A DNA stretch of 28,018 bases from a virus (Duplodnaviria > Caudoviricetes), in IMG/VR virus record IMGVR_UViG_3300025267_003074, positions 1-28,018 of that record, one strand, 5' to 3'. The position numbers and the translations under genes were made by a program. The notes beneath the pieces were generated by a model. It saw nothing but the letters and a program-made list of their open reading frames with translations. It made no database searches and had not been told where the DNA came from. Shown one piece after another: positions 18-16,900 of this stretch; the first letter of the stretch is position 1, and every line of letters starts with the position of its first letter.

Positions 18-3000
18 TTGGCGACTATCAATTCTGGTACTGATAATATAGCTATAGGTCAAGCTACCGGCGGAACTGTAACTGTAAAAAATGACCTTCA
101 AGTAGAGGGTGATATTAATGTAACAGGCTCAGGCGCAGTAGAAGTAAACGTAACTACTCAAGGAACTGTGCTTATAGACTCTACTAATGCTGAAGCATTG
201 TTAGTGCGTAAAAATGGTGATGCGGGAGATATACTGACAGTAGATACCTACGCTAGTAAAGTAACCATGGGTGGTCCAATATTAGCTTCTAATGGGACAG
301 CAGGAGCTCCAGCTTATTCTTTTTCAGGTGACCCTGATACTGGATTCTATTGGACGTCAGTAAATACTTTTGCATTAGCTGCTGGAGGTACGGCAGTAGC
401 AACATTCACTACTACAGCCCTAAATCCTGGATCCGACGGGGCGTACTATTTAGGCCAAAGTGGCCAGCGCTGGAAGGGACTTAGTATTGATGCTGATAGC
501 ACAAACGGCGCAGGACTGGATATAATCAATTCAACAACTCAGACTAGCGGAAGCTTAGTAACTATAACTGGTACGGCTAATAAGGTAGCCCTAGAAGTAG
601 CTACAGGCTATTTGCGGGTAGGTGGCAATATAATTAATGATACTGATAATTCTTATGATATAGGCACATCAACCAGGCAGTTTAAAGATATATATATAAA
701 TGGTATCGGTTATATAGATCAACTTGGCACAGATTCTGACCCTATAACAGCTTATATTAATAGTGGAGAAATAGATGATACCCCAATAGGTACTGAGAAT
801 CACTCTACAGGAAAGTTTACTACTCTAGAAGCTAGTGGAGCAGTAACTATAGGTGGTGATATAGACTTTAATAGTGCTACTATTAATACAGCTTCACAGG
901 AAGTTACAGTAGAGGTAAAGCCCGTAATAGGCTCGTTTCACTTTGATGGAGCTGCTGACAATATTTTATCTATTGATGGTGCCAGTAACAGGGTCGGTAT
1001 TGGGACTGCTACACCAGATTATATGTTAGAACTTGAATCTAGCACCAACAATTCACCTACTTTATGTTTAACAAATTCATCTACTTCAGACCAATTAGGC
1101 TCAAACATAATTTTTAGAAATAGTCACACTGATGGAGTAACCTCAGAAGGTCAATCTCTTGGAGATATGGTTTGGCAGGCTAGTAACAATGAAGACTCTA
1201 ATGCTTATCAAAACGCTTGTGCAATTAAAGGTATAGCAGGTGCAGAGATAGGGTCAAGTGGGGACCCAAGTGACTCTCCTGGGGAGTTACAATTTTGGAC
1301 TACCCCAAATGGTTCTGAATCTTTAGCACAAAGAATGACAATACTTGAAAGTGGCAATGTCGGTATTGGGACTAGTTCGCCAGGTACAGCCTTAGAAATT
1401 GGTGATGGAAGTTCAACCAGTGCTACTATTACTTTAAATGGTTATAGTAGTGCTGATTCAAGGATTCTTTTTGAGAATAATACTTCTACGATGGGGGTTA
1501 TTGGATATGACATCAGTACATCTACCACAGACTTAAAGATAAATTGCTCAGCCAATTTAAGTGATAATCATTTAGTTGTTCAAAGTGATGGCAATGTCGG
1601 TATTGGGACTACTTCACCAGATACTTTATTAGACATAGGAAGTGCCAGTATTGGGACAAGTGCTCCACATATACGAATTTCAAATACAAAAAATGCTGCT
1701 GATTGGCACGCGTCAAATGAAGAAGCTATTGGGGGATTGGAATTTTATAGTGCAGATACAAGTGGTGATGGTGGTGCAGGGGTAAAATCCTCAGTAAGAG
1801 CTTATAATGATAATACTACTTATGGTGGATATTACGGATTAAAGTTTGGCGTATCTGGTTCTACTGCTTCTGGTGGAAACGATTATACCGCTATGACTAT
1901 AAAGGCATCTGGCAATGTCGGTATTGGGGTTGTAGGTCCCAATACCAAACTAGAAGTTCTTGCTGGCACTGCTAATCAATTAAAACTCTCCTTTGATGCA
2001 ACTGAAAATTGCACATTTGGCGTAGATACTAATGGCTATCTTACAATTACCCCTAGTGGTAATAATATATTGTTAGCGGATACAGTGACAAATTTAAAGA
2101 ATACTACGTATACTTCAGGCTTATTCACTGGAGATGGTTGGGGTATATATAAATCAGGGTCTGACTATAATCTTGAGGTAGATAATCTTTGGGTAAGAGG
2201 ATCTATGTTTGTATGGGAGCTTGTCATAAATCAGATTAGAGCTACAAACGGAAGCCTAGTGGTGACCTCTGCAGCTAAAGTATCTGCTGTAACTAATGTA
2301 TCTGGAGATACATGGAATCTAACTTTTGAAACTGGTGATACTTCTGATGTAGATTACCATCCTTTTGCTAATGGTGATCTTATTATGTCACATGAAAGTA
2401 CGCTTGGGGAGAATGGATCTCCAGCAGTTATAACTGAGACGCAATTTCAGGTGACTGATATAGCTGTTGGTGACGTAAATGTACTGGAAGCCACCAAAGA
2501 AAGCACTACTAATGATCCCGCTGTAGGTATGACTTTTGTTAGAGTTGGGAATACTAGTGACGCGGCTAGGCAGGGAGGCGTTTATCTTACATCAGATGAC
2601 TCAGGGTCACCATTTATAGATATATGGAATGGGGTAACAGATTTTGCCAATGGAGAAGCAGCTACATCAGGTGACTGGGAACATAGTGATAAGGTTAAAG
2701 TGAGGCTAGGTAGACTTGATGGACAAACTGGTGGGGATAATGAATATGGAATGTGGGCTGGTAAAACTTCAACTAATTATATAAAGGCTAGTACATCTGG
2801 TGTCTTTATAAAGGGTGATGAGGCTACATATCTTAAGGCTGATGCTGCTAAGATAGAGTTTTATGATAATAATAAGAAGATGGATATTACTGGCAATAGC
2901 ATAAAGATGTATGCTGATGATGGCGCTACTGTTATGACTGAGTGGGATAATACTACTCTTGTTTTAGGTGGAGATGTAGAGGCTGATCCTGCTAATTATT

Positions 3001-5822
3001 CATATTCTACTGTTATTGCTCCTACTGCTGTTACAGTGTATGGTGCTAATGCTACAGATGGTGTTTTTATAACCAATACTGGAGTTGAGATTAAAAAAGA
3101 TACGAATGATTCACTATCCTTAACGTCTGGAAGTATAATTATGAAGAGTAATAATACTCCTCAACTTGCTGTCAGTGAATATGGTATGAATATTGGGCCA
3201 GCTGCTGTTGCTCCTTCTTCTGCAGACTCTCCATCAGCAGTTATTGCTAATGTTAGTGTACACTCTGGTGGGGTTAATATATATGGAGGGACTGACGTAG
3301 ATGACAATGTAGCAATTAATGATACTGGAATGATAGTTACTGTAGGTAATAACGCTGTAGCAGATTTTGGTTCAAATGTAACTTTAAATGGAGGCATAAT
3401 AACTCTTAATGGAGATAGTCAGACACCTACAGATAACCAACTAACAATTACAGATGGTTCTATCAGGATTAAAGAAGGGGGGATTGGATATTTTTCAATA
3501 GTAGAAGGCACAGTAACAGTTGGACAGGCTACTAGGGGCCATATTGAACTAGATTCGGGCGGCTTAACAGTTATGGATACATTTGATAAAGTAGTGTCAA
3601 CCTTTAGGTCGAATGAACTTCGTCTTACACCTAAAGGCCAGACTAGTCCATCAGCTGGAGATAAACAAGTAAAGGTTACTGGCAGCACCATAACTTTTGA
3701 GGAATTCATCGGGCTGGGCGTATGGAGCATTAAGTCTAGCTTTGGTCGTGATATAACTCTAAAAGCTGGAATTATAAGTGTACAGACAGATACTTCTGGT
3801 GTAAACTCAGAGGTAGAAATCTCTAGTACAGGGGTTGAAATAATTGGGCCAGCATCTGAAAAGCTTTCTGTAGATAGCGGTGCTCTGACATTCTATGATG
3901 GTACCAATAATAGAGCAAGTATTAGTTCAACTCATCTAAGGCTATGGAACGAAGCTGGTGATTTAGGGCTGGAAGCTAATAGTAGTGCTCTTAAAATTTA
4001 TGGACCTGGCAGTACTAATGATTACATAGAGCTGGATGGTGATGGAATAACACTGGTAAATGATAATAAGGATAATATAATTATAGGTACTGAGAGTGGT
4101 GACAACTATTCCAGCATCCGACTTGGCTCTAAGAATTTATCCTCCCCTGGCGCCGCAGATTATCGCATTAAAGTTATGCCTGATCAGGAAGGGATAAAAT
4201 TTCAAAGATATAGTTCTGTTACCCCAGCGTCATGGCTCCCATTATTGAGTTTAGATTATGACGATGGTTTAACTATTTATGATGCTAATTATGCCAGTAA
4301 TCCTGACGTAAAAATAGCTAGCTTTGGAAGGGGTACTGACCCTATTGTGAGAGTTGGGAAGTATGAAAATGACTCTTCTCGCCTAGAAATAGATGTAAGT
4401 GGTAATCTATCTATAATAAATAGAGTATCAGGTACTGACACTACTGCAATATCTCTAAATAGTTCTGGCAGTGCTAGTTTTACAGGTGCTGTTACTGCAA
4501 CTTCGGGTACATTCACAGGTACGATTAACGCATCAGGGGGATCTTTTACTGGATCGGTCAATGTTGCTTCCAATATTGTAATAAATACTTGGGGTGGCAC
4601 TATATTGTTTGGATCTGGTTCTACACGAGAAAATATATTAATAGGCCCCTCTACCAGCAAGCCTGGGGATGCATTAACTGATACTACTAACACTAATGAT
4701 AATATAGCTATAGGTGCAAATACACTATATAAGACTGAAGACGGCTCTTATAATATTGCAATAGGCCAGTCCGCTATGAGGTTCATCAATAAAGATAACA
4801 CCGATACCTATTTACATTGTTTGACAAATACTGCAGTTGGCGCCTTTGCTATGCAGGGGTGGGGCCAGGCAGGATATAATAATAGTGCAAGAGATAATGT
4901 AGCAATAGGGTACAATGCTGCGGTGAACTTTGGACAACATAATTCTTCTTCTCTTATTAATGGCAATGTGTGTATAGGTGCTAATGCAGGTGCTGTTGTA
5001 AGTGGGGATAAAAATATAGCTATAGGTTTTGAAGCAGGCATGGGCTTGCAGACAAATACTGATAATATTATAATAGGTAATGGTGCTGAGCCAGGAGGGT
5101 CAGCTTATGTGAATACTATTGTGATCGGAAAGGATGCCACAGGAATGGGGTCTAACACGGTAAAAATAGGCAGCTCTTCTATAACTCATACTAGGCTCCA
5201 GGGAGATGTAAGTATAGGAACTGATAGTGTTGGGAGAATTAATCAGGGCAATTGGGCGACAACTCTTACTATAGAGTCGGATGCAGATTCCCCTGGCAAT
5301 GAGGACCCTCCTATTATAGAACTTAGCTATCATGGCGAGAGCCTAACTGGAGAAAATATTGGATGTATTGCTATGCTTGCTAATGGAAACCCATTAGTAC
5401 AAATAATAGGAGAGACTCAGAATACCTCAGAGAATACTGGAGATTTAAGGTTCTTATTGATGCATAATAGCACTGTTGAAGAAAGGTTTAGGATAACTTC
5501 TGATGGAAATGTTGAAGGCACTCATGGAGACTATCATACTGCCTCAGATATAAGGCTAAAAGATAATATAGAAACTATTCCTAATGCGCTAGAGAGGGTA
5601 AAATCTTTGAGAGGTGTTAACTTCACATGGAAGGATAAGGATAAAGAAAAACTTAGAATTGGTTTAATAGCTCAAGAGGTGGAAGAGGTGTTCCCAGAGT
5701 CAGTACATACAGAGGATACTGAAGAGGCTATTAAATCTGTTGAGTATCAATTTCTTGTCGGGGCATTAGTGGAAGCGGTTAAAGAGCTATCAGCAAAGGT
5801 GGAAGCACTTGAAGCTCAATAA
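18..5822 (+). CDS. Large tail fibre/tail spike protein with GNVGIGT repeats and C-terminal peptidase S74 intramolecular chaperone (probably 5'-truncated by the window)
   Basis: The 1934-aa ORF is Gly/Thr/Ser/Asn-rich and beta-rich. It has four (G/N)xVGIG(T/V) repeats and NIAIG/NVAIG/NVCIG beta-roll-like repeats near 4700-5150. The C-terminal SDIRLKDNI...LRGVNFTW...GLIAQEVEEVFPE...LVEAVKEL matches the S74 chaperone pattern. The frame is open to the window edge upstream of the TTG at 18, so the real start may lie outside. Confidence 0.9.
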   Translation: MATINSGTDNIAIGQATGGTVTVKNDLQVEGDINVTGSGAVEVNVTTQGTVLIDSTNAEALLVRKNGDAGDILTVDTYASKVTMGGPILASNGTAGAPAYSFSGDPDTGFYWTSVNTFALAAGGTAVATFTTTALNPGSDGAYYLGQSGQRWKGLSIDADSTNGAGLDIINSTTQTSGSLVTITGTANKVALEVATGYLRVGGNIINDTDNSYDIGTSTRQFKDIYINGIGYIDQLGTDSDPITAYINSGEIDDTPIGTENHSTGKFTTLEASGAVTIGGDIDFNSATINTASQEVTVEVKPVIGSFHFDGAADNILSIDGASNRVGIGTATPDYMLELESSTNNSPTLCLTNSSTSDQLGSNIIFRNSHTDGVTSEGQSLGDMVWQASNNEDSNAYQNACAIKGIAGAEIGSSGDPSDSPGELQFWTTPNGSESLAQRMTILESGNVGIGTSSPGTALEIGDGSSTSATITLNGYSSADSRILFENNTSTMGVIGYDISTSTTDLKINCSANLSDNHLVVQSDGNVGIGTTSPDTLLDIGSASIGTSAPHIRISNTKNAADWHASNEEAIGGLEFYSADTSGDGGAGVKSSVRAYNDNTTYGGYYGLKFGVSGSTASGGNDYTAMTIKASGNVGIGVVGPNTKLEVLAGTANQLKLSFDATENCTFGVDTNGYLTITPSGNNILLADTVTNLKNTTYTSGLFTGDGWGIYKSGSDYNLEVDNLWVRGSMFVWELVINQIRATNGSLVVTSAAKVSAVTNVSGDTWNLTFETGDTSDVDYHPFANGDLIMSHESTLGENGSPAVITETQFQVTDIAVGDVNVLEATKESTTNDPAVGMTFVRVGNTSDAARQGGVYLTSDDSGSPFIDIWNGVTDFANGEAATSGDWEHSDKVKVRLGRLDGQTGGDNEYGMWAGKTSTNYIKASTSGVFIKGDEATYLKADAAKIEFYDNNKKMDITGNSIKMYADDGATVMTEWDNTTLVLGGDVEADPANYSYSTVIAPTAVTVYGANATDGVFITNTGVEIKKDTNDSLSLTSGSIIMKSNNTPQLAVSEYGMNIGPAAVAPSSADSPSAVIANVSVHSGGVNIYGGTDVDDNVAINDTGMIVTVGNNAVADFGSNVTLNGGIITLNGDSQTPTDNQLTITDGSIRIKEGGIGYFSIVEGTVTVGQATRGHIELDSGGLTVMDTFDKVVSTFRSNELRLTPKGQTSPSAGDKQVKVTGSTITFEEFIGLGVWSIKSSFGRDITLKAGIISVQTDTSGVNSEVEISSTGVEIIGPASEKLSVDSGALTFYDGTNNRASISSTHLRLWNEAGDLGLEANSSALKIYGPGSTNDYIELDGDGITLVNDNKDNIIIGTESGDNYSSIRLGSKNLSSPGAADYRIKVMPDQEGIKFQRYSSVTPASWLPLLSLDYDDGLTIYDANYASNPDVKIASFGRGTDPIVRVGKYENDSSRLEIDVSGNLSIINRVSGTDTTAISLNSSGSASFTGAVTATSGTFTGTINASGGSFTGSVNVASNIVINTWGGTILFGSGSTRENILIGPSTSKPGDALTDTTNTNDNIAIGANTLYKTEDGSYNIAIGQSAMRFINKDNTDTYLHCLTNTAVGAFAMQGWGQAGYNNSARDNVAIGYNAAVNFGQHNSSSLINGNVCIGANAGAVVSGDKNIAIGFEAGMGLQTNTDNIIIGNGAEPGGSAYVNTIVIGKDATGMGSNTVKIGSSSITHTRLQGDVSIGTDSVGRINQGNWATTLTIESDADSPGNEDPPIIELSYHGESLTGENIGCIAMLANGNPLVQIIGETQNTSENTGDLRFLLMHNSTVEERFRITSDGNVEGTHGDYHTASDIRLKDNIETIPNALERVKSLRGVNFTWKDKDKEKLRIGLIAQEVEEVFPESVHTEDTEEAIKSVEYQFLVGALVEAVKELSAKVEALEAQ
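993..1928 (+). repeat. Dispersed DNA-identical repeats encoding (GN)VGIG(T) inside the tail fibre gene
   Basis: TGGCAATGTCGGTATTGGGACTA occurs at 1352-1374 and 1589-1611 (23-nt exact match). Shorter copies are TGGCAATGTCGGTATTGGG at 1910-1928 and GTCGGTATTGGGACT at 993-1007. Confidence 0.9.
5544..5819 (+). other. Peptidase S74 / intramolecular chaperone autocleavage domain
   Basis: S-D-I-R-L-K (Ser1843/Lys1848 dyad in ORF-track numbering), followed by GLIAQEVE and a terminal coiled coil. Confidence 0.9.
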
Positions 5823-5882: not shown

Positions 5883-7781
5883 ATGAGCGTAATGGATAGA
5901 CGCTTACGTTATGTAGACAGAAAGAGACTGAATAGAGAGCGTGAGCTTGCTAAACAGGAACAAATTGACTTAGCGCAGAAGCAGCAGATGTATACTCTCG
6001 GTGGGGCTGCTGTAAGCGGTGCCTTTAAGCTGCGTGAATCCAATATACAAAGAAATAAGGCTAAGTTAGGAAAGGTTGTGGGAGAGAATCAATGGGGTAT
6101 TTCAGCTGATACTTCTTTATATGAGCAATATCAGCCTGAGAGCCTCCTTGGTAAGGCTAAAAATCTAGTTACTGGTGGAAGTGTAGTACAGAATCCTGCA
6201 GTAGCTCAACAAATACTTAAACATACAGAAGAACAAACAGGCAAGATTCCTGAAACTGGTGATTACTCTAAAGGGGAGCGGCTTAGTGAGATTCCTGCAG
6301 AAGGTGGCGTCATAGAGTATGAGCCCGCTGCTAACGATATAAAGACTTATAGTTCAACACCTAAAACTGTGACAGATTATGATCCTTCTTTTACCGAGGA
6401 TTCCTTTACTAGTGCAGAAGGTTTAGAGGCTGGTACTGGACAAGTTCTGAGTGAAGATGAACTTTTTATGCAAGGGTATGATAATGAACCTATTTATAAT
6501 GAGGAAGAGCTTGCATCTGCTTATAGCAAGCAATATGGCTCTCAGTTTATAAATAAAGATAATCCATTTGCAACATCTGGTAGCGGGGAATCCTACGATG
6601 TATTAAGAGATCCAGCTAGCACTAAGTCTATGCCGGCTGGTGGAGATATGGGCTCTAGTGCAATCCATGGAAGGGCTGGAAGAGTACTTTATGATGCTGC
6701 AACAGAAGATATGAAGGAACCTTTAGATTTTTCTTCCAGTTTTACACGTCCTCTGGGCACTGAAGATATTAAGCCAATCTCTCCTGTTCCTGAACGCTTT
6801 AAAGCTCCTGGGCCAGGAAGTCAACCTATGCCTGAAGTTATGCAAAATATGCGAAATGCAGAGCTAGCTAAATCGCAGGGTGTTAGCGCTGAAGTAGACT
6901 TTAATAAGGCATTATCTGAGGGAAGGAATCCATTAGATGACTCTTTTAATACCAGCCAAACGCTTAATCCTAATAGCCCTATACAGAGTAGATCTCCGCA
7001 ACTTAGAGGAGGAGGGGACTCTTTTAGGCCTGGTGAGGCTACTAAGACAGCGGTAAATAACATAAAAAAGAAGACTCATGATTCAAGGTTGGGCTTATCT
7101 TCCCAGCTTGAGACTCAAAGTAAGATTAAAACTGGAACGAATGCTTTAGGCTCTGCATATAGTGCTTATAAAGCTGGTAAAGTTCTTACTGATGAAGATT
7201 CAAGTGCGTTAGAAAAAACTCAAGCGGGCCTTAATGTGGCTGATGTAGGCCTAAAGGCGGCAAAAGCAGTTGCTAAAAAGACAGCAACAGAGACGGTTGC
7301 GAAAGAAGCTGGCAAAACAGTTGCAAAGGAAGCTGGTAAAACAGTTGCAAAAACAGGTGCAACAGCAGCGGGAAGTTTAGCATCTGGCATAGGTATAGGG
7401 ACATCTGCTGTTGCTACAGTTGCATCAGCCAAGGCAGCCCAGGACGCCTGGCAGTCGGGAGATAAGTTTGCTGGTGCAGCCCATGGAGTTAGTGCCGTTG
7501 GATCAGGACTTACTACTGTAGCCGACGCTGCAACAGCCACTGGTATTGGAGCTATTGTAGGGGTGCCTTTAAGGGCGGTGGGAATGGCGCTTAGTACAGC
7601 AGGAACAGTAGCCACCCTAGGAAAGGCAGGTCATGATATAGCTACAGCAAGTGCAAGTGGGCCAGGATCTTCTTCTCCAGCAGATGATATAGCTACAGTT
7701 CCGCGCGGGAGGGTAGATAGGCTCTCAACTAAAAGAGGAAAGTCTAATAGAGGCAATTTTAGAGGATTAAACTATGCGTAA
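5883..7781 (+). CDS. Putative virion core/ejection protein (low complexity, Ala/Gly-rich hydrophobic C-terminal region)
   Basis: 632 aa with a strong SD (AAGGAG) and no cysteine. The middle is acidic and looks disordered. It contains TVAKEAGK repeats and glycine-zipper-like helices (ATGIGAIVGVPLRAVGMALSTAG). It lies between the tail fibre and virion RNAP genes. Confidence 0.6.
   Translation: MSVMDRRLRYVDRKRLNRERELAKQEQIDLAQKQQMYTLGGAAVSGAFKLRESNIQRNKAKLGKVVGENQWGISADTSLYEQYQPESLLGKAKNLVTGGSVVQNPAVAQQILKHTEEQTGKIPETGDYSKGERLSEIPAEGGVIEYEPAANDIKTYSSTPKTVTDYDPSFTEDSFTSAEGLEAGTGQVLSEDELFMQGYDNEPIYNEEELASAYSKQYGSQFINKDNPFATSGSGESYDVLRDPASTKSMPAGGDMGSSAIHGRAGRVLYDAATEDMKEPLDFSSSFTRPLGTEDIKPISPVPERFKAPGPGSQPMPEVMQNMRNAELAKSQGVSAEVDFNKALSEGRNPLDDSFNTSQTLNPNSPIQSRSPQLRGGGDSFRPGEATKTAVNNIKKKTHDSRLGLSSQLETQSKIKTGTNALGSAYSAYKAGKVLTDEDSSALEKTQAGLNVADVGLKAAKAVAKKTATETVAKEAGKTVAKEAGKTVAKTGATAAGSLASGIGIGTSAVATVASAKAAQDAWQSGDKFAGAAHGVSAVGSGLTTVADAATATGIGAIVGVPLRAVGMALSTAGTVATLGKAGHDIATASASGPGSSSPADDIATVPRGRVDRLSTKRGKSNRGNFRGLNYA
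7293..7352 (+). repeat. 24-nt tandem repeat (2.5 copies) encoding TVAKEAGK
   Basis: acggttgcgaaagaagctggcaaa / acagttgcaaaggaagctggtaaa / acagttgcaaaa. The copies differ only at synonymous positions. Confidence 0.9.
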
Positions 7782-8118
7782 ATATATAAAAAATATAAAG
7801 GTAGGTGATTATGTTAAGTCTCTTAACTTTAAGACTGGTGAATTAGAGAAGCATAAAGTAGAAAGTACGTTCTCTGGAGAAAGTGATCATTACTATATTA
7901 TTAATAAGAAGATAAAGGTTACAGGAGCTCATCCTTTTTATGCCAATGGTAAGTGGACTAAGGTTGAAGATCTATCTACAGGAGATATGTTATTAGACGC
8001 AAAAGGAAAATCTGTCAAGATAAAAAGTATCTCAAAAGTAGACTCCCCAATTACTATCTTTAATATGGAGGTAGAGGGCACTCATAATTATTTCGCTGGG
8101 GGATTTCTAGTACATAAT
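7774..8118 (+). other. Hint/intein C-terminal fragment (IntC, 115 aa; BIL-A/pretoxin-HINT-like)
   Basis: TxxH (T50, H53), NMEVEGTHNYFA and terminal His-Asn (H114-N115). The +1 residue is Lys, not Cys/Ser/Thr. There is no homing endonuclease. Confidence 0.9.
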
Positions 8119-9090
8119 AAGGGTAATAAATGGTACGGCTCAGATAAGAAGGCAAAAAAAATGAGGGATGCAATTAATGATAAGGCTACCGAATATAATG
8201 ATACAGTATATGCTGCCTACGGAGGTGCCATAGATGAAATTGCAGCAGAGGGTATTGAATTTGAAAAGACTACCGCTAATGCAGAGCAAATTATAGATGA
8301 AGGTTTTTCTCCAGATATGGAATTATCGGGGTTGGCTGTAGAATACAAGTCTCAAATAGATGACTTAAATACTGCATTTGGAGATACTCAGCAGACTAAT
8401 GCGCAAACTTTACAGGATCAACGTGCAGAGCTGCAAGTAGCTTCAGAAAACAGCGGGTTAGTTACTGCTGGAGAAGTGGTGAGGGCTAAGGAGGAGATCT
8501 TGGTAGAGAATGCTGAGTCTGCTGGAGAGAATCAACAAGATCGTGCAATCGGTAGAGAGGTTGCTCTCAATGAATTTAAGACATCAGTTAATGATGCTAA
8601 GGGTGACTTTACTTCAGCGGCTAGTGATGATATAGCTGAAGCTATGACAGAAGTTAATATAGGGGTAGATACTCTTAATACATATTGGAAGGATTCTATA
8701 AGAGGCGGGCATAAAAGAAGAAGAAAAAATGTTAATGATTCAACACCTGATGGGGAAAAAATAAGAAGTAAAGATGGCGCGTCATCTGATTATATAGACG
8801 AAGCCCTAATAACAGATTATGACCTAGGTAAAGGTTCGGAGAATCCAGGTATTGATGAAACGCATGATATGTCTGATAAGGATGGCCTTGTCTCAGGCAT
8901 GCAGAGGATAAAAGATGAGTCTGTTTTTATGCCTACAAGAGATGTACAGGATAGGACTCTGATTACTGGAGCTTTTGATAAGAGTCTTCATGGTAAAACA
9001 ATGTCAGATGCTTTTAGCACAGGGAATGCATATATGCATGGTAGAAGGTGTTTTTCAGGCGATACATGGATAGAGGTATATAATGGCTGA
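7774..9090 (+). CDS. Putative virion core protein flanked by a circularly permuted Hint/intein domain (IntC - 310-aa cargo - IntN)
   Basis: Residues 1-115 are a Hint lacking its start: IKNIKVGDYV, block B TGAHPF, WTKVEDLSTGD, blocks F/G IFNMEVEGTHNYFAGGFLVHN. Residues 426-438 are the missing block A, CFSGDTWIEVYNG. The SD is AGAGGA, and an in-frame TAA sits two codons upstream of the ATG. Confidence 0.85.
   Translation: MRKYIKNIKVGDYVKSLNFKTGELEKHKVESTFSGESDHYYIINKKIKVTGAHPFYANGKWTKVEDLSTGDMLLDAKGKSVKIKSISKVDSPITIFNMEVEGTHNYFAGGFLVHNKGNKWYGSDKKAKKMRDAINDKATEYNDTVYAAYGGAIDEIAAEGIEFEKTTANAEQIIDEGFSPDMELSGLAVEYKSQIDDLNTAFGDTQQTNAQTLQDQRAELQVASENSGLVTAGEVVRAKEEILVENAESAGENQQDRAIGREVALNEFKTSVNDAKGDFTSAASDDIAEAMTEVNIGVDTLNTYWKDSIRGGHKRRRKNVNDSTPDGEKIRSKDGASSDYIDEALITDYDLGKGSENPGIDETHDMSDKDGLVSGMQRIKDESVFMPTRDVQDRTLITGAFDKSLHGKTMSDAFSTGNAYMHGRRCFSGDTWIEVYNG
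9049..9087 (+). other. Hint/intein N-terminal fragment (IntN, 13 aa) at the protein C-terminus
   Basis: CFSGDTWIEVYNG matches block A consensus C-F/L-x-G-D-T-x-V/I-x4-G. Its Cys is the only cysteine in the 438-aa protein. Confidence 0.8.
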
Positions 9091-10195
9091 ACAAGAAGAT
9101 ATAATGGCTTTAAACGCCCTTCTAGGGCTTACAGCGAGCATCCTAGAGCACGCGGCTAATGTTAAGAATATTAATACTAGTGCTGAGATAGCTAGAGATG
9201 AGCTACAATTTAGGATAAAGAAGGAGCAGACAAATCAGAACTTAGAGTTTGCCAAGATGGAGTTTGAGCTGAACCAAAGGAAGATAGATCAGTATGATTC
9301 TCTAGAATTACAACTTCAAGAGTCTATGTATGAGAGGACTGGCAAGAGATACAAGTTTAATGAGAAGGATATTACTAGCAGTTATGATCAGCTTCAAGAA
9401 TCCCATTCTAGCAATACTGTTGATAGAATGCAGTCTCTTAGGGCTCAAAGTAAGGCTGAAAGAAGCAATGCTGCTAAGCGTGTAGAGACTTTAAAGAATG
9501 AGATAGAGTCTCTTGATAAGATTAGTAGATATATAAATACTAATCTTTCTCCGGCACTTGCTGGCAATGTAGATTCTTATGATGTTGCAGATTATAAGGC
9601 AGCTGTCACTATGGCAAAGGAGGAATATGGTATAAAAGAGTTTGATGAGTATCAGATGGGTGCTATTAGTGTTAACCAGCCCAGCCTCACTAATCTCATT
9701 AAGCTTAATGCTGCTTTAGATAGTAAGGGCAATGAAGATCTAAGAATGGATATTACCAAGGGAACAGCAGAGGCCAGACAAAGAGCTGAGGCAGAGACCC
9801 ATTTAACTTATATGGGAGACTTGCTCAGTCAGTCAGATAAAGGAGATACTTCCGAAACAGTTACGGCTCTCTTGCAATTAGCTAAGGATAACAAAGGAAA
9901 GTCACTTTGGGGTCTTAATATGGATGAGGATACTATGTTTGGTGTAATAAAGGATTTAGCAACAGCTTTATCCGGTGATATGTATACATTCGAGCAGATG
10001 TTAGCAGATCATCCACACCTAAGAGAGGCTATTAAAAGTAATCCTGCTTTAGCTGCACAATACCAGGCTTTTCTAAATAAGAAGGCTTCCTTTATAGACT
10101 TTTCTAAAGTCCAGCCATTAAAGTCTTCTAGTCCAGACTCTTTAACTGTAGATATTCAATATAAGCAATATTTAGATAATATGAAGGGACAATAA
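9083..10195 (+). CDS. Putative virion core/ejection protein, coiled-coil rich
   Basis: 370 aa with SD GAGGT, overlapping the upstream stop. It has long heptad-like Q/E/K/L stretches and no cysteine. The function is inferred from context. Confidence 0.55.
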   Translation: MAEQEDIMALNALLGLTASILEHAANVKNINTSAEIARDELQFRIKKEQTNQNLEFAKMEFELNQRKIDQYDSLELQLQESMYERTGKRYKFNEKDITSSYDQLQESHSSNTVDRMQSLRAQSKAERSNAAKRVETLKNEIESLDKISRYINTNLSPALAGNVDSYDVADYKAAVTMAKEEYGIKEFDEYQMGAISVNQPSLTNLIKLNAALDSKGNEDLRMDITKGTAEARQRAEAETHLTYMGDLLSQSDKGDTSETVTALLQLAKDNKGKSLWGLNMDEDTMFGVIKDLATALSGDMYTFEQMLADHPHLREAIKSNPALAAQYQAFLNKKASFIDFSKVQPLKSSSPDSLTVDIQYKQYLDNMKGQ

Positions 10196-10196
10196 G

Positions 10197-10982
10197 ATGC
10201 CGCCTAAAGCTAATAATAAATATGACTTTGACTTGAAGCTTCTAGGCGGAGATGAAGAATTTAAGAGTTACCTCCATAAGTCTTTTACATTATTTGAAGA
10301 TATATCTTCTGGTATGACTAATCCTCAGAAAGATGCTCTGCTATTTAAGATTCAAGGCAATATACAAGAGAAGTATAAGTCTAAGGATGCAGAGATAGGT
10401 CATATATATAAATCTTGGTGGGAGAATGATAGAAGTTTTGGCTATTTAAATAATAACCCCTATGATGTAGAGCTTAGAGACAGGGGGTCTAAGTATAACT
10501 ATGAATGGCTCCTAAATAAGAGTGATAGCGAGATAACAGACTTACTATCTCAAAATCCAGCACTAAAGAAGGCTTATAGCATTACAACCCAAGAAGATGA
10601 GTATACGAAACTAATGAGGCAGAGACATGCTGCCGCATCTGTAAAGGAAGGGTTTGTACATAATGTTGACACACGTGAGCATCAGGTAAGCAGAGAGAAT
10701 AGGTGGCTCATGATGGCTGGTAAAGATGTTGGAGTAAAGGCGGGAGTTAATTATGTATTAGGTGCTACTGACAGTTATGAAAATATAGTAGATGAGCTTA
10801 GAAATAATGGCCTTTTACCAGAGAGTTTAGAAAGTAATCTCCAAAGGATATCTAAAGCTAGTGCAAAGAAAGCTAATAAAAGTAATGATGAGCTGTCTAA
10901 AGCTATAAGCAGTTTGAGATATATAGATAATCCTGATGAGTTAAAAGTTTACTATCAATTAATAGAACAGGAAGAGAAATGA
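10197..10982 (+). CDS. Hypothetical protein (likely virion core protein)
   Basis: 261 aa with no cysteine. It has an ATGA overlap with the RNAP gene and no recognisable motif. Confidence 0.55.
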   Translation: MPPKANNKYDFDLKLLGGDEEFKSYLHKSFTLFEDISSGMTNPQKDALLFKIQGNIQEKYKSKDAEIGHIYKSWWENDRSFGYLNNNPYDVELRDRGSKYNYEWLLNKSDSEITDLLSQNPALKKAYSITTQEDEYTKLMRQRHAAASVKEGFVHNVDTREHQVSRENRWLMMAGKDVGVKAGVNYVLGATDSYENIVDELRNNGLLPESLESNLQRISKASAKKANKSNDELSKAISSLRYIDNPDELKVYYQLIEQEEK

Positions 10983-13900
10983 GTGAATGGCATTTTGATC
11001 CTTCTATCTTCCCAGATGAAGACACTGAGAAGAAGAAGAAGAAGCAATTAGGCTTAGTTCCAGTACAGCCTAGATCCGACTTTGAAATCCCAACAGTAAT
11101 AAAGAAAGCAGAGAAGTCTGTGTCAACAGATATCTCTCAAGAGCCTGAAGGTGATTGGGGTGACTTCTTTTCAGCTTTAGGAGGGCACGCACTGTCCAGC
11201 GCTACTATGGGGCTTACTGAGTTTAGTGATGACCTTAGAAATAAAGCATGGGGTGAAAAGAATGCTCATGAATTATGGGGAGCTGCTCTTGGTGAGGCTG
11301 CAGGATTTTTAGTTCCTATAGGGCTGATAGGTAAGGGCGTTAGAGCTGTTGGATCAGGCCTTAAGACTGGCGTTAGGAGTATAGCTAAACAAACAGCAAA
11401 AGAGACTGCAGATTTAGCTGGCACGAATATAGCTAAAACTGTAGGAAAAGAAGCTACTCAAGAGACTACTGAGGCTGCTGCTAGAAATATTATACGAAAG
11501 ACTTTAGAACATGAAAGTGGCGCTACTATAATAGGTAAAAGTCCTAAGTATCTCTATCAGCTAGAGGTTGGTGGAGAGACTGCAGCTAAGGCTTCTTCCA
11601 AGATAGGCCAGATCCTTACTGCAAAACTTAGTACCAATCTATCTGAGGCTGGTATTAAAGTTACAGGCAAGCAGATAGATGACATAGTTACAGGCTTTAC
11701 TAAAGGCATCCAAGAAGGCAAGCATTACAATACCTTAGGATCATGGTTGAATCATTATTCTAGATCAGCCCCTACTGGAGGCTTTTGGAAGTCTAAGTTT
11801 TCTAAATGGGCTGGAGAAGCTACTGATGAAGCATTAGTACTTACTATGGATAGTGTTATGAGGGACTATATCAGGTCCAAATATACCTCCGATGATAAGG
11901 TTCCACATAAGTTTGCACCTGGCACTGCAGCAGGGCATGGTATATTGCTCGGAGCTATCTTCCCATTTATTAGATCTGGCTTTGGTTTACCTTTATTTAA
12001 GAAGGGTGGCAAAGAGAAGCTTACAGATGGTGCAAGAATTATGTTTAACCAATGGAAGAAGACTGACTATGCTAAGTTAGCTGAGACCCAACAGGGACGT
12101 TCTACTCTCAAAGGTTTTTTAGAGATGCTTAATGGAAAGAAGAACATCACTGAATGGACATCTAAGAAGGTTAAGATAACTCGTACTGGAGCTAATGGAA
12201 AGCCTATAACAGAAGAATTACTATTAGATGATATATTGAACATGAACTTATCTTCTAAGGAGGGCGGAAAGATAGCTCGACAAGCATTAGAGCAAATACG
12301 TAGTAGTGTCTCTACCCCTAAAGCTCTAGCTAACTGGGCATTAAAGTGGAGTATGGATACAGCAGTCTCAATACCTAGAATGGCAGTTGGCTCTGCAGCT
12401 ATGAATTGGCAGTCCATAATAGACCCTAGTATGTCTAATGCTAGTATTCATGAAATACTTCCACATATGATGATAGGTGCTTTTATGACCAAGAGCCGGA
12501 GGGGTTGGATGGAAGGAGAGATGGCATCTCGTAATGTAGATAACTATTTTGAGATGGCTCGATATCTAGATATAGATACTAAAGCACTTGCAGATGTGGT
12601 TAATTATCATAAGGCGAGGCAGGATGTAGCTATTAATTCCAGGGGTATGCTTGGTAGTGATTCTGCTAATGAAATATTTGATATCTATGATATTGAGATG
12701 AGGGAGGCCCGGAAGCATAACCAAAGAACTACGGTCGGTACTGAGCATCAAATAGTTAAAGATTGGTATGATATCTATCACAGAAGAGGTCTTGTAGAGG
12801 ATCTAGACTTTAATATACTAGATCTTGAATACCTCTCTAAAAAACAGCTTAATACTATTGCAGGGAAGCTTGAAACTATAGAGTATAATGGCAAAAAGCT
12901 TAGTGAGTTTACTCCAAATGAATGGTTTAATCTGGAGCGTATTAACTGGAATCAGGGTGTAGAGGGGTCACATATTAGGTTCCTAAAGAGGCTTAATGAT
13001 CTAGGGGTAGTAGACTTTAATGTAGATACTAAACAGGTGGGTAGAGTAAATAGAGAAGGTGGCAATGAACATATTAAGGTAGATAGAATGATATTAAGGC
13101 TGCATGATCTTGGTCTGGTTAAAATTACTACCCATTTAGGAGAGAAAGGTAAGGATATATCTCCTGAGGTTATTAGGGAAGCATCAGAGTCCTTTAAAGA
13201 TGGACTACGGGCTGATGCTGTAGGGGAAGGCATTCATGTCCCTATTGAACTTAATGATAACTTATTCCTAGATGAAATGCATGCAGTAAGGAGAATACAG
13301 ACTGAGGAAATTCTGCAGAAATCAGTAGTTGGCGACAATGAAGGTCTCTCTCCCGTTCAGCAAGATTATAGGAAGAGAGCTATTGATCCATTCCTATTAG
13401 ATTCTAAGGGAAATATGGTTGATCCTGTAAGGATAGAAGTTACTGAAAAAGATATTCCAGACCTTACTAGAAAGAAGATGAATGACTCAGACGTTGCCTT
13501 TGCTGAAAAAGATAGGGCTCAATTAGAGTCAGACCTAAGGGAGATAGCTTCTGTTTATCATGCAGGCACTTCTGAAAAATCTATGACTGGTGAGGTAAAG
13601 AAGTTGTCTTATGAGGAGGCTAAATCTATTGTAGATGGATTCAAGGAAATGCAGCTCCCTATATCGGCAGAAAGGCTTATATCAGATGGTATACTTTCAT
13701 CCCAGATAGCTTATAAAGTAAAAGTTCGTAGATTTCAAAAGAAGTTTCCTGATCGGTTGCAATACGAGCTAGTTACAGACTTAGAAGATGCAGGTCTAGG
13801 TTGGTGGAATCCTGAGGCAGAACAGTTTTATGTTTATGACTACCGTACAGCTTCATTAATGTCAGGAGAGACTGGAACTAGTAGGGCTAGAGATAATATG

Positions 13901-16900
13901 TATGCACAACTTTTATCTTATTTAGGAGATAAAGTCCAGACTACTGGTGATTTAACTAGACAGCAGCCTGTAGATATGACTGCTATTAAACGTATCCATA
14001 GCAAGATTCCTGAAGTTCGCAAGAAAATGATAGTAGAGAAGATTGTAGGACTTAGAGATAAGCTTGCGTCTATTGATCTTTTAGAAGGAGAAAATAGTAT
14101 TAAAGCCTTAGAAGATGCACTAAGTGACTCAGATGGTACGAAGGCTCTACAGGCATTAGAGGCTATAGCTGAGAAGCTTCCAGCAGTTAGGGAAGAAATA
14201 CTAAGAGTTAAAGGTTCTTTAGAAAGAGATTTATCTAGAGGGAAGATATTTGAAGATGCTCTTTTAAATACTGATATTTATAATAAAGATTTAGGATTAT
14301 GGATTAATGCTTTGAAAGAGGCATTTGTTACTGAAGGCAGAAGTAGGAATGATGCAGAGAAGTTACTTAGTATGATGCTGAATGAGAGAGATAATTCTTT
14401 ATTCTATATAAAGAATCTTACCAAGGAGATTGAGAAAACTGTTGAAAGGCCTGGTGCTTCATTGGAAGACTTAGCTCTTGAGTTTGCACAAACGCATGGA
14501 CTTGCTGAATGGAAGCGCATGGTCAATGCTGTGTATCTATCTAGGCAAAAACCTATGGAGACTGATTTATACTATCATGAGAATGAGGCTAATTTTGCTG
14601 CCGATATAAGAAATGACGCTGGAAGTGTGTCTAGAAATAGTGTCAAGATTATAGCTGATTATGACCTAGGTAAGAATGGAGAGCTAAAAATAGAGGTGGT
14701 GGAACAACTGAAGACACCAGAAGGAGTATCAAATCTTGTAGCTGATATTACAGATAAGTTTGGGCAGCGTGCTGGAGAGAATTTTCTAAGGAATGATCTT
14801 GGAGTACTGTTAAGAGACAGCGGTTTACAGGAACGCATTACAAGGGTAACTTATAAAGATGGAAATCTAGAGTTTGAGTTTGATGTAGCTTCATCTAGGA
14901 CTAGGGCTAGAGAGATTATTAATGAATTTAACGATGAAGGTATAGTTATTTATGAGGCTTCTGGTAATGCTATGGACAAAGGTAGGAAACCTCTTGAGCT
15001 TATATCAGATCTTTCATCTAAAATACGTAGCGCTAAAGTAAGGGTATCACAAAAAGAAGATTTAAAGAGATTTAATGAAGGTGCGCATGAAGATATATCT
15101 ATAGGAAATACTAAGGAAGCATTAGAGAGAATTGATGGATCTTATGAAGTGCTCATTACTGGATATACTAAGCCATTATTCTTTAAGTCTTCAAAAGAAA
15201 ATATAGCAGCTATTAATAAAAAGTTTAATAATGATCTGGTTCAGATACTAGCTGATGCTCCTGGAGGGGCTAACGGAGAGATAGCCCAAAATATAAGTAG
15301 GGCTTTTGAGAATACTTCTAATGCAGCGTTACAGCTTAGGGCTTTATATTGGTTTAAGACTAATGGCAAGCTTGCTTATGACTTATTTATGAATGATAAT
15401 GTCAGCAGTTTAGAAGCTATGTCTGAGGCATCTAGAAAATATATTAAGTATTCTACTCTATTTGCTAATGAACTATCTAAGCCAGTCTCCAGAGAATCTC
15501 TAGAGCGATTCTTAGAGTCTAATACTGAGCTTTCAAATGAGACTCGTAGGTCTATAGAGACTATCGTAAATGAGTTTGACAATATAGGTGTAGTTCCAGT
15601 GCTAGATGAGAGTTTTGCAAGAACTTTTATAGGTAAGGATGGCTCTATAGCTGAGACTAATATTTTTAATAATAGACTCAATCATGTCAGGCAGATAGAG
15701 ATTGATCAATCCCTACCAAAAGATATGCGTAAGCATTTATCAGAAAAATACTCTAATGAGGAGTTTATAAATAGCTTAAATACCTCAGGATGGGATGGGA
15801 TAATCATTATAAGTAAAGATATGTATCTTACTTCTATGGCTATGAGGCCAGAGGGATCTAATTCTAATGCGTTAAAGCCTACGGTATGGCATAATAGCGG
15901 TGTAAGCACTGTTTTAGGCAAGGGACTATATGCATATATACCAGAGATTTCTGATGTAATGCCTAGAGGTGTTCATATGATCATGTCTGGATCTGCTGTT
16001 AAGTCACTTAGAGGTAGATCTAGGGCTGGCAATGAAATAGTACCTCTAGACGGATCTAATCTGACTACAGGTGCTGATATAGTAAATCCATCTATGGAGA
16101 ATATTATAGATATTAGCTTTGCAGATCAAGGGATTATAAAGAGCTCTCATGGTCTCACTAATGCACCTATCTCTCATACGATTACGTATGGTAAGTCTAA
16201 GAATCTGGTAGACAAGACAAGAGTATGGATGCAATTAGATGAAATAATCTCTAAGGCTGTTGGGTGGGATGCTCATATGAAGAACGCTGCTTCTTCTAAT
16301 CTAGCTCAGGTTCTTGCCAGAATGGAAAAAGAAGGAGGCTATGAGGCTGAAGGACTAGGCTTTGTTAATGAAATGGTTAATGTTTACGGCTTCCATCATA
16401 CTATGCCGTTGGTAAAGAAGTCTATCTTTAGAATGTTCAAAGACAGGATGCTTACTAAGATTAATAAGCCAACTGCAGATGGTAAGCAGGGTAGATACTA
16501 CATCTTACCAGATATGACTCTTAAGAATCCTTATTTTACCACTATGTCTAAAGATGCTTCTACTATTGAGGTGCAGACACAGTTCGGAGAGATTTCCCTA
16601 CCTTATGAGTATGCTTTAGGTATGACAAGGGGAAATAGGGCTTTACGGAGTGTTGATTCAATGCAGGAGCTTCAGTTCTCTTTTAATGAGAATGGTGTAG
16701 ACTACATGTTTACTGTGAATGGGGATGGCACTTATAAAATTTATAACAATATAGAGGCTTATCAAAAGGAAGGGTTTACCTTGCCCTATGCACACAAAGC
16801 TCCAATGGAGGTTCCAGCTGGAGTAAGAGAAATTATAGAGAGTCTTTCGGGCGTTATGAAGAGCGACGAGGGAACATATTGGCTGGGCTCTGGAAATGAC

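Follow-up and report, generated by a model that had tools for sequence, protein, structure and literature searches.

What would a phage do with a Hint domain that is cut in two and set, in reversed order, around one protein? The question is raised by the gene P0001 in a 28,018-nucleotide (nt) stretch of phage DNA (positions 1 to 28,018 of the IMG/VR virus record IMGVR_UViG_3300025267_003074; Duplodnaviria, Caudoviricetes; 53% complete), which is called the window here. Its protein begins with the C-terminal part of a Hint domain (IntC), continues with a cargo and ends with the short N-terminal part (IntN), and 14 divergent full-length phage proteins have the two halves in the same arrangement. 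It is highly probable that the halves reassemble with some self-processing; that the end of the cargo is joined to its start by ligation, which we propose by analogy with the chemistry of type A BIL domains (BIL-A), has in our estimate a probability of roughly one half. Papers are cited by PMC number, and what is said of them refers to the available parts of each text.

The two halves and their conservation

The Pfam family PT-HINT matches amino acids (aa) 3-116 of the protein (E 5e-17), and aa 96-115 are matched by the intein C-terminal model of NCBIfam, which answers a check of the native protein against Hint and intein profiles proposed in the sequence-only reading of this DNA, an earlier note made without database searches. 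In a profile that we made of 190 intact Hint domains taken from the search hits, positions 16-128 align to aa 3-115. In structural alignment, residue 1 of the AlphaFold model pairs with about residues 12-15 of most solved Hint domains, and the closest folds to aa 1-115 are BIL domains, namely Tetrahymena BIL2 (6y75, residues 14..145, Z 15.9) and Cth BIL4 (2lwy, residues 13..135, Z 15.4, root-mean-square deviation 1.4, 115 aligned residues). Since the solved domains align only from about residues 12-15, IntC lacks the first 12-14 residues, and the tail from Cys426 onward has 13. The sequence-only reading had described just this, a Hint domain without its first strand at the N-terminus and the missing piece at the C-terminus, and both statements are borne out, the former by Pfam, the intact-Hint profile and the structural alignment alike. 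Cys426 is the only cysteine of the 438-aa protein and a TAA stands in frame two codons before the ATG, as had been claimed, and the positions given for Thr50 and His53, for His114 and Asn115 and for the cargo limits are correct (Table 1). The Shine-Dalgarno-like AGAGGA lies 7 bases ahead of the ATG, and no block A was found in the stretch upstream in this frame.

With a matrix made from intact domains, the highest-scoring block A window anywhere in the protein is that at the terminus in 12/12 divergent full-length proteins, with a shuffle p of at most 0.035 in 11 of them (0.001 for P0001, 0.11 for P0170). In the AlphaFold monomer, the predicted local distance difference test (pLDDT) is 24-45 over aa 311-420 (27 at 411-420) and then 81 over aa 431-438, where the tail forms strands at 427-428 and 432-435 in a cargo-bearing chain that is otherwise strand-free beyond IntC. 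The model of the divergent P0143 behaves in the same way (pLDDT 32-43, then 88 over aa 491-500), with strands at Cys+1..+2 and Cys+6..+9 in both proteins, and the P0143 tail is modelled confidently although it scores low on the block A matrix. From these models, the 13-aa tail likely docks into Hint and completes the fold.

The alignment A5 has 16 rows (P0001, one near-copy and 14 divergent rows of 19-31% identity), picked for an N-terminal Hint start and for completeness. Thr50, His53, Asn97, Asn105, His114, Asn115 and Cys426 are invariant in all of them, and IntN is 12-17 aa long (13 in P0001). Mean pairwise identity in 15 rows is 45% for IntC, 45% for IntN and 19% for the cargo; IntC identity among rows is 39-61%, while cargo identity to P0001 is 9-21%. 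Both halves are thus conserved while the cargo drifts, with the residues of the N-side and C-side steps invariant, and the co-conservation in homologues for which the sequence-only reading had asked is found. Among the stored loci, 239/243 have a Hint match (246 frames); all eight frames whose match begins at profile position 14-16 have a Cys block A motif at their end (8/8, five distinct proteins), and none of the six further frames that start at position 28 or at 77 and beyond has a terminal Cys motif.

The P0001 cargo is homologous to that of its main group (leave-one-out E 1e-18), and among the three subgroups the cargos are weakly tied (hhalign probability 6-42%). In an IntC tree (97 rows, 115 columns, quick method) the permuted rows form three supported groups with no supported branches joining them, and one intact Hint falls inside the main permuted group; on these sequences, a single origin of the permuted form is neither shown nor excluded. 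Viral contigs scanned with P0001 alone or with a terminal-motif pattern yielded no relatives, and the query with the alignment gave 80 loci. In GenBank phages there was one Hint match, of the intact type, and zero full-length relatives, and among the matches listed the permuted form is absent from 79 cellular-genome loci.

Junction chemistry and the fate of the cargo

The residue after Asn115 (+1) is Lys in 12/16 rows and Gly in the other four, and Cys, Ser or Thr in 0/16; of the 190 intact relatives, 131 have Lys at this place and 12 have Cys, Ser or Thr. Because there is no +1 Cys, Ser or Thr, the canonical four-step route that SICLOPPS uses is closed. By its sequence the domain is BIL-A-like, and type A BILs end in His-Asn without a +1 nucleophile and can splice, through thioester formation, Asn cyclisation and attack by the freed amino group (PMC4031507). 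Therefore, since the canonical route is closed and the domain is BIL-A-like, aminolysis is the route available. The residue before Cys426 is Lys or Arg in 11/16 permuted rows and in 6/190 intact relatives, and the cargo start carries a conserved motif of the type K-G-x-aromatic-x-G-x-D; with the basic -1 residue enriched and the start motif conserved, both cargo ends look constrained. The rows with Gly at +1 favour the alpha-amine over a lysine side chain as the attacking group.

On BIL-A chemistry, we propose the following. IntC, which is translated first, would be nearly folded and would await the last 13 residues; a cavity of such a kind has been described in atypically split inteins (PMC11766414), and an S1 split after strand 2 is functional in natural and engineered inteins (PMC13014065, PMC11766414). 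The docked Cys426 would convert the Arg425-Cys426 bond to a thioester with the assistance of Thr50 and His53, cyclisation of Asn115 would release the Lys116 amino group, and this amine, held in the same active site, would attack the Arg425 thioester and close the bond, after which the Hint pieces would leave. The order of the pieces, their complementary length and the invariant catalytic residues are observed directly, and the chemical steps are inferred. No other partner half is visible in the records scanned, where there is one PT-HINT match per record in 4/4 related records and one such locus in the window. Joining in cis, which would give a ring, is a tentative proposal, and joining between copies to a head-to-tail chain is more doubtful; the ring is placed ahead of the chain because about 115 flexible residues ahead of the tail make docking in cis feasible. 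It is similarly doubtful that the phage builds a covalent head-to-tail chain of ejection protein in the particle and threads it out through the tail as one rope.

The sequence-only reading had offered cyclization or concatemers on the SICLOPPS model; the architecture, the conserved order, the assembly, the likely docking of the tail and the virion-module context are supported, whereas the SICLOPPS chemistry fails with Lys or Gly at +1. Any ligation would have to proceed by aminolysis as in BIL-A domains or through a Lys isopeptide, and cyclisation or polymerisation is thus no more than plausible. Among the outcomes that it had itself named as damaging, those examined gave nothing against its model.

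Several points weigh against ligation of the cargo ends, or against the reassembly on which it depends. Cys, Ser and Thr are lacking at +1 throughout; tested BIL-A domains yield mainly cleavage products (PMC4031507, PMC7664689), and in the available part of the review PMC7765530 BIL-A ligation is called impossible. Intact relatives that end in a single Lys keep the identical His-Asn-Lys, so the conservation of Lys is no proof that the cargo start is the acceptor. The terminal peptides score -4 to 21.5 against a median of 30.8 for intact block A, and the intact-Hint profile calls the terminal peptide a domain in just 3/30 proteins, with negative bits. The docking is deduced from pLDDT and strand calls and not from coordinates, in models with a predicted TM-score of 0.37-0.40 and of a fold that AlphaFold already knew; the monomer model once proposed as a check has thus delivered confident tail strands in two proteins, with the contact to Hint left to deduction. 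Four IntC-first proteins (P0033, P0035, P0097 and P0142; 147-399 aa) stop within the cargo and lack the terminal motif, and look like fragments cut short. The records scanned for other halves are 45-76% complete, and gene position is the sole ground on which the cargo is taken for a virion protein.

The same chemistry allows another outcome, in which the halves reassemble, both junctions are cut and a linear cargo is released, so that the domain would be a self-removing clamp; this is possible, if somewhat speculative, and such a clamp might keep the two ends, or adjacent copies, in contact while the particle is assembled, or postpone maturation until the last 13 residues have been made. The prevalence of cleavage in tested BIL-A domains and the lack of a +1 nucleophile fit it, a protein passing the tail channel would presumably need to shed a folded Hint, and seven similar phage loci have intact cargo-Hint-Lys-stop genes in which cyclisation is impossible. 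However, for release alone the intact form would suffice, as it needs a single cut and nothing to reassemble; the permuted form has nonetheless been retained in proteins whose cargo is 9-21% identical to that of P0001, and the cargo ends are conserved beyond the needs of release. If instead a lysine side chain, of Lys116 or of another virion or host protein, attacked the cargo thioester, then a lariat, a branched chain or a cross-link would result. The top fold match is BIL2, which is known for isopeptide ligations via lysine (PMC8616854), and the +1 residue is Lys in most permuted rows and intact relatives; but four rows have Gly there, in L122 and L129 the first Lys comes 8-9 residues further in, and the Z-scores of BIL2 and Cth BIL4 are tied, so that we consider this outcome unlikely.

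That the halves reassemble into a clasp with a structural role and no chemical activity seems very improbable: the terminal peptides do deviate from a typical block A, and the activity is a prediction from sequence, but Cys1, the block B Thr and His and the block G His-Asn are invariant in 16/16 rows in which IntC has diverged to 39-61% identity. Hardly more credible than this, and if anything less, is a multi-gene chain of trans-splicing in which the protein would be a middle piece and its halves would pair with halves on other phage genes. The incompleteness of the records, the difficulty of detecting a lone 13-aa half and a second IntC end on the upstream gene in L129 would leave room for it, but there is a single Hint match per record (4/4), the flanking genes vary among loci and carry no half, and the two halves of the permuted gene are exactly complementary. 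A six-frame scan for lone block A peptides was unspecific, as short non-coding frames reach a score of 20.

At the contig end of L129 (positions 1-83), 83 bases exactly repeat the permuted gene's IntC end and are fused in frame to the upstream gene; we set this second IntC end aside as probably an assembly artefact, and a recent duplication is also possible. Readthrough or frameshift from the upstream gene was dismissed, as there is no block A upstream and the upstream genes differ between loci. In one subgroup (L003:9992-11518, L004:9992-11599, P0169 and P0170) a Cys at +2 is the sole other cysteine of the proteins, and it could trap the thioester before passing it to the N-terminal amine.

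Relation to known systems

The gene is SICLOPPS-like in layout and, by analogy, BIL-A-like in its predicted chemistry. SICLOPPS is engineered, and the inverted layout is treated as engineering in PMC7765530 and PMC5874633; it likewise places IntC, target and IntN on one chain, from which rings or polymers are expected. Here, in contrast, the gene family is natural, the split lies after about residue 13 and not near the C-terminal third, the domain is of BIL type, and the target starts with Lys or Gly in place of Cys, Ser or Thr, with Cys at +2 in four rows. With BIL-A and PT-HINT domains, such as Cth BIL4, the protein shares the fold, Cys1, TxxH, the terminal His-Asn and the lack of a +1 nucleophile, and PF07591 matches 16/16 rows; but known members are contiguous between two different flanks, whereas this one is split and permuted and both its flanks are the ends of one cargo. 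Tetrahymena BUBL1 BIL2 (PDB 6y75, 6tmm), the top fold match, also ligates without a +1 nucleophile, via lysine, but is contiguous and eukaryotic, with ubiquitin-like domains on its flanks.

The likeness to atypically split inteins lies in the short N-fragment, cut after strand 2 in the S1 manner (PMC13014065, PMC11766414), though in those a +1 nucleophile serves to join two exteins in trans, while here both halves are on one gene. Natural short N-fragments are those of VidaL (16 aa), PolB16 (15 aa), AceL-TerL (25 aa) and GOS-TerL (37 aa) (PMC13014065, PMC11766414), and 15 aa is termed record-short in PMC13014065, compared with 13 aa in P0001 and 12-17 aa in its family.

The fold of aa 1-115, the block A nucleophile and the block B TxxH are those of the Hint superfamily, with block A displaced to the C-terminus. 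The +1 Cys, Ser or Thr of class 1 inteins is missing, and an intein-free allele of the cargo did not appear in a cargo-only search, which, within its limited sensitivity and length range of 240-767 aa, returned its own cluster alone. Natural split inteins have their halves on separate polypeptides, and here both are in one open reading frame of incomplete records. Thus the protein departs in a defining feature from class 1 inteins, from the contiguous BIL-A domains, from natural split inteins and from SICLOPPS, and judged from the sequences the architecture appears new. A natural permuted intein or Hint was not found in the full-text literature searched, a scope that leaves out most subscription journals and all supplements, and within that literature the permuted Hint would be undescribed even if it only cleaves. 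[quoted passage not shown] A chain would in addition be a genetically encoded self-polymerising protein without a side-chain nucleophile at the junction.

Assembly, gene neighbourhood and further loci

Of the 12 proteins in the 90% cluster, which derive from JGI and ENA assemblies, 11 have both halves and a length of 438 aa, and the remaining one (309 aa) starts within the cargo. Parts of the stretch are contained in 19 public DNA runs, nine of them with at least half its words and all nine marine metagenomes, and the window may stem from one of the runs; no RNA run is among the listed public runs that contain parts of it. Contigs of 4/4 public runs tile 7000-9800 with zero joints, indels or loose ends, and one contig covers 7000 to 9060 and so includes both the start codon and Cys426. 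An assembly artefact or a decayed rearrangement is therefore of practically negligible probability: no single contig from the four runs spans the whole of 7000-9800, but the 11 full-length near-copies, the joint-free tiling and the divergent homologues with both halves effectively refute it, which also settles the misassembly check of the sequence-only reading in its favour. Among the 11 near-copies, variable sites number 2/115 in IntC, 0/13 in IntN and 34/310 in the cargo. Strain variation is concentrated at 8600-9050 of the window, where the second half of the cargo is encoded, and occurs in blocks common to several near-copies, and the pattern of these sequences suggests recombination between strains.

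The cargo is modelled as long helices to about aa 322, followed by about 115 low-confidence residues, and has no Pfam or PHROG family match and no fold match. Atlas matches of the cargo (0.78) were dismissed as being at chance level, and those of the whole protein (0.83) are unconfirmed leads. The gene stands between tail genes and very large virion genes, being followed by genes of 370, 261, 2849 and 895 aa in this order (Table 1), and the order presumably resembles that of podovirus core/ejection genes (T7 gp13-16). With a helical, low-structure protein this fits a podovirus-type ejection (core) protein, and the cargo is likely a virion ejection protein by gene position and helical make-up; in the searches, no known ejection protein came up as a homologue of the cargo by sequence or fold.

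A homologue of the 370-aa gene follows the permuted gene in L001 (E 3e-11), whose record also contains terminase and portal genes. L003 and L004 have homologues of the 2849-aa gene downstream of their permuted genes, and D-x-D-G-D is shared by the L003 homologue; the protein, which gave no Pfam, PHROG or PDB sequence match, is possibly a virion RNA polymerase by this motif. In L003 a tail-protein gene is three genes upstream and an acetyltransferase (phrog_1249) directly before the permuted gene.

Table 1. Positions of the permuted gene, its parts and neighbours in the window, and of intact Hint genes in other loci.
Feature	Sequence	Position	Strand	Remarks
Permuted Hint gene P0001, IntC-cargo-IntN	window	7774..9090	+	438 aa; single open frame
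Shine-Dalgarno-like AGAGGA (7761-7766) and in-frame TAA (7768-7770)	window	7761..7770	+	from sequence
IntC, aa 1-115	window	7774..8118	+	Hint domain minus first 12-14 residues; blocks B, F, G
Block B, Thr50-x-x-His53	window	7921..7932	+	invariant 16/16 rows
Blocks F and G	window	8062..8118	+	Asn97 16/16, His104 14/16, Asn105 16/16, His114-Asn115 16/16
Lys116, +1 residue	window	8119..8121	+	first cargo residue; not Cys/Ser/Thr
Cargo, aa 116-425 (Lys116-Arg425)	window	8119..9048	+	310 aa; net charge -23
IntN, aa 426-438, block A	window	9049..9087	+	Cys426 invariant 16/16; preceded by Arg425 (Lys/Arg 11/16)
Tail fibre	window	18..5822	+	C-terminal Peptidase_S74 chaperone
Upstream gene	window	5883..7781	+	632 aa; no family; 8-nt overlap with start of permuted gene; no Hint piece
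Downstream gene	window	9083..10195	+	370 aa; 8-nt overlap with end of permuted gene
Very large gene	window	10979..19528	+	2849 aa; D-x-D-G-D near aa 2042-2047
Intact Hint, then one Lys and stop	L106	1591-2823
Intact Hint, then one Lys and stop	L107	4913-6145
Intact Hint, then one Lys and stop	L109	735-2003
Intact Hint, then one Lys and stop	L113	625-1629
Intact Hint, then one Lys and stop	L116	3198-4976
Intact Hint, then one Lys and stop	L118	3-812
Intact Hint, then one Lys and stop	L119	2075-3364

In seven phage-like loci an intact cargo-Hint-Lys-stop gene stands ahead of large genes. Kinship of their cargo with that of the permuted gene is unsupported (hhalign 0.1-1.4%; best hmmsearch E 0.004 over 48 aa). 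In many other marine loci (L082-L121) a like Hint type is found at the C-terminus of unrelated proteins. L154 has what appears to be an ordinary two-gene split intein, with IntN ending one frame (4477-5442) and IntC starting the next (6252-7160). Bacterial proteins (P0022, P0037, P0050, P0122, P0129 and L007:8760-10577) carry 3-4 tandem Hint domains with very short Lys-Gly linkers, and many of them have a hydrophobic N-terminus.

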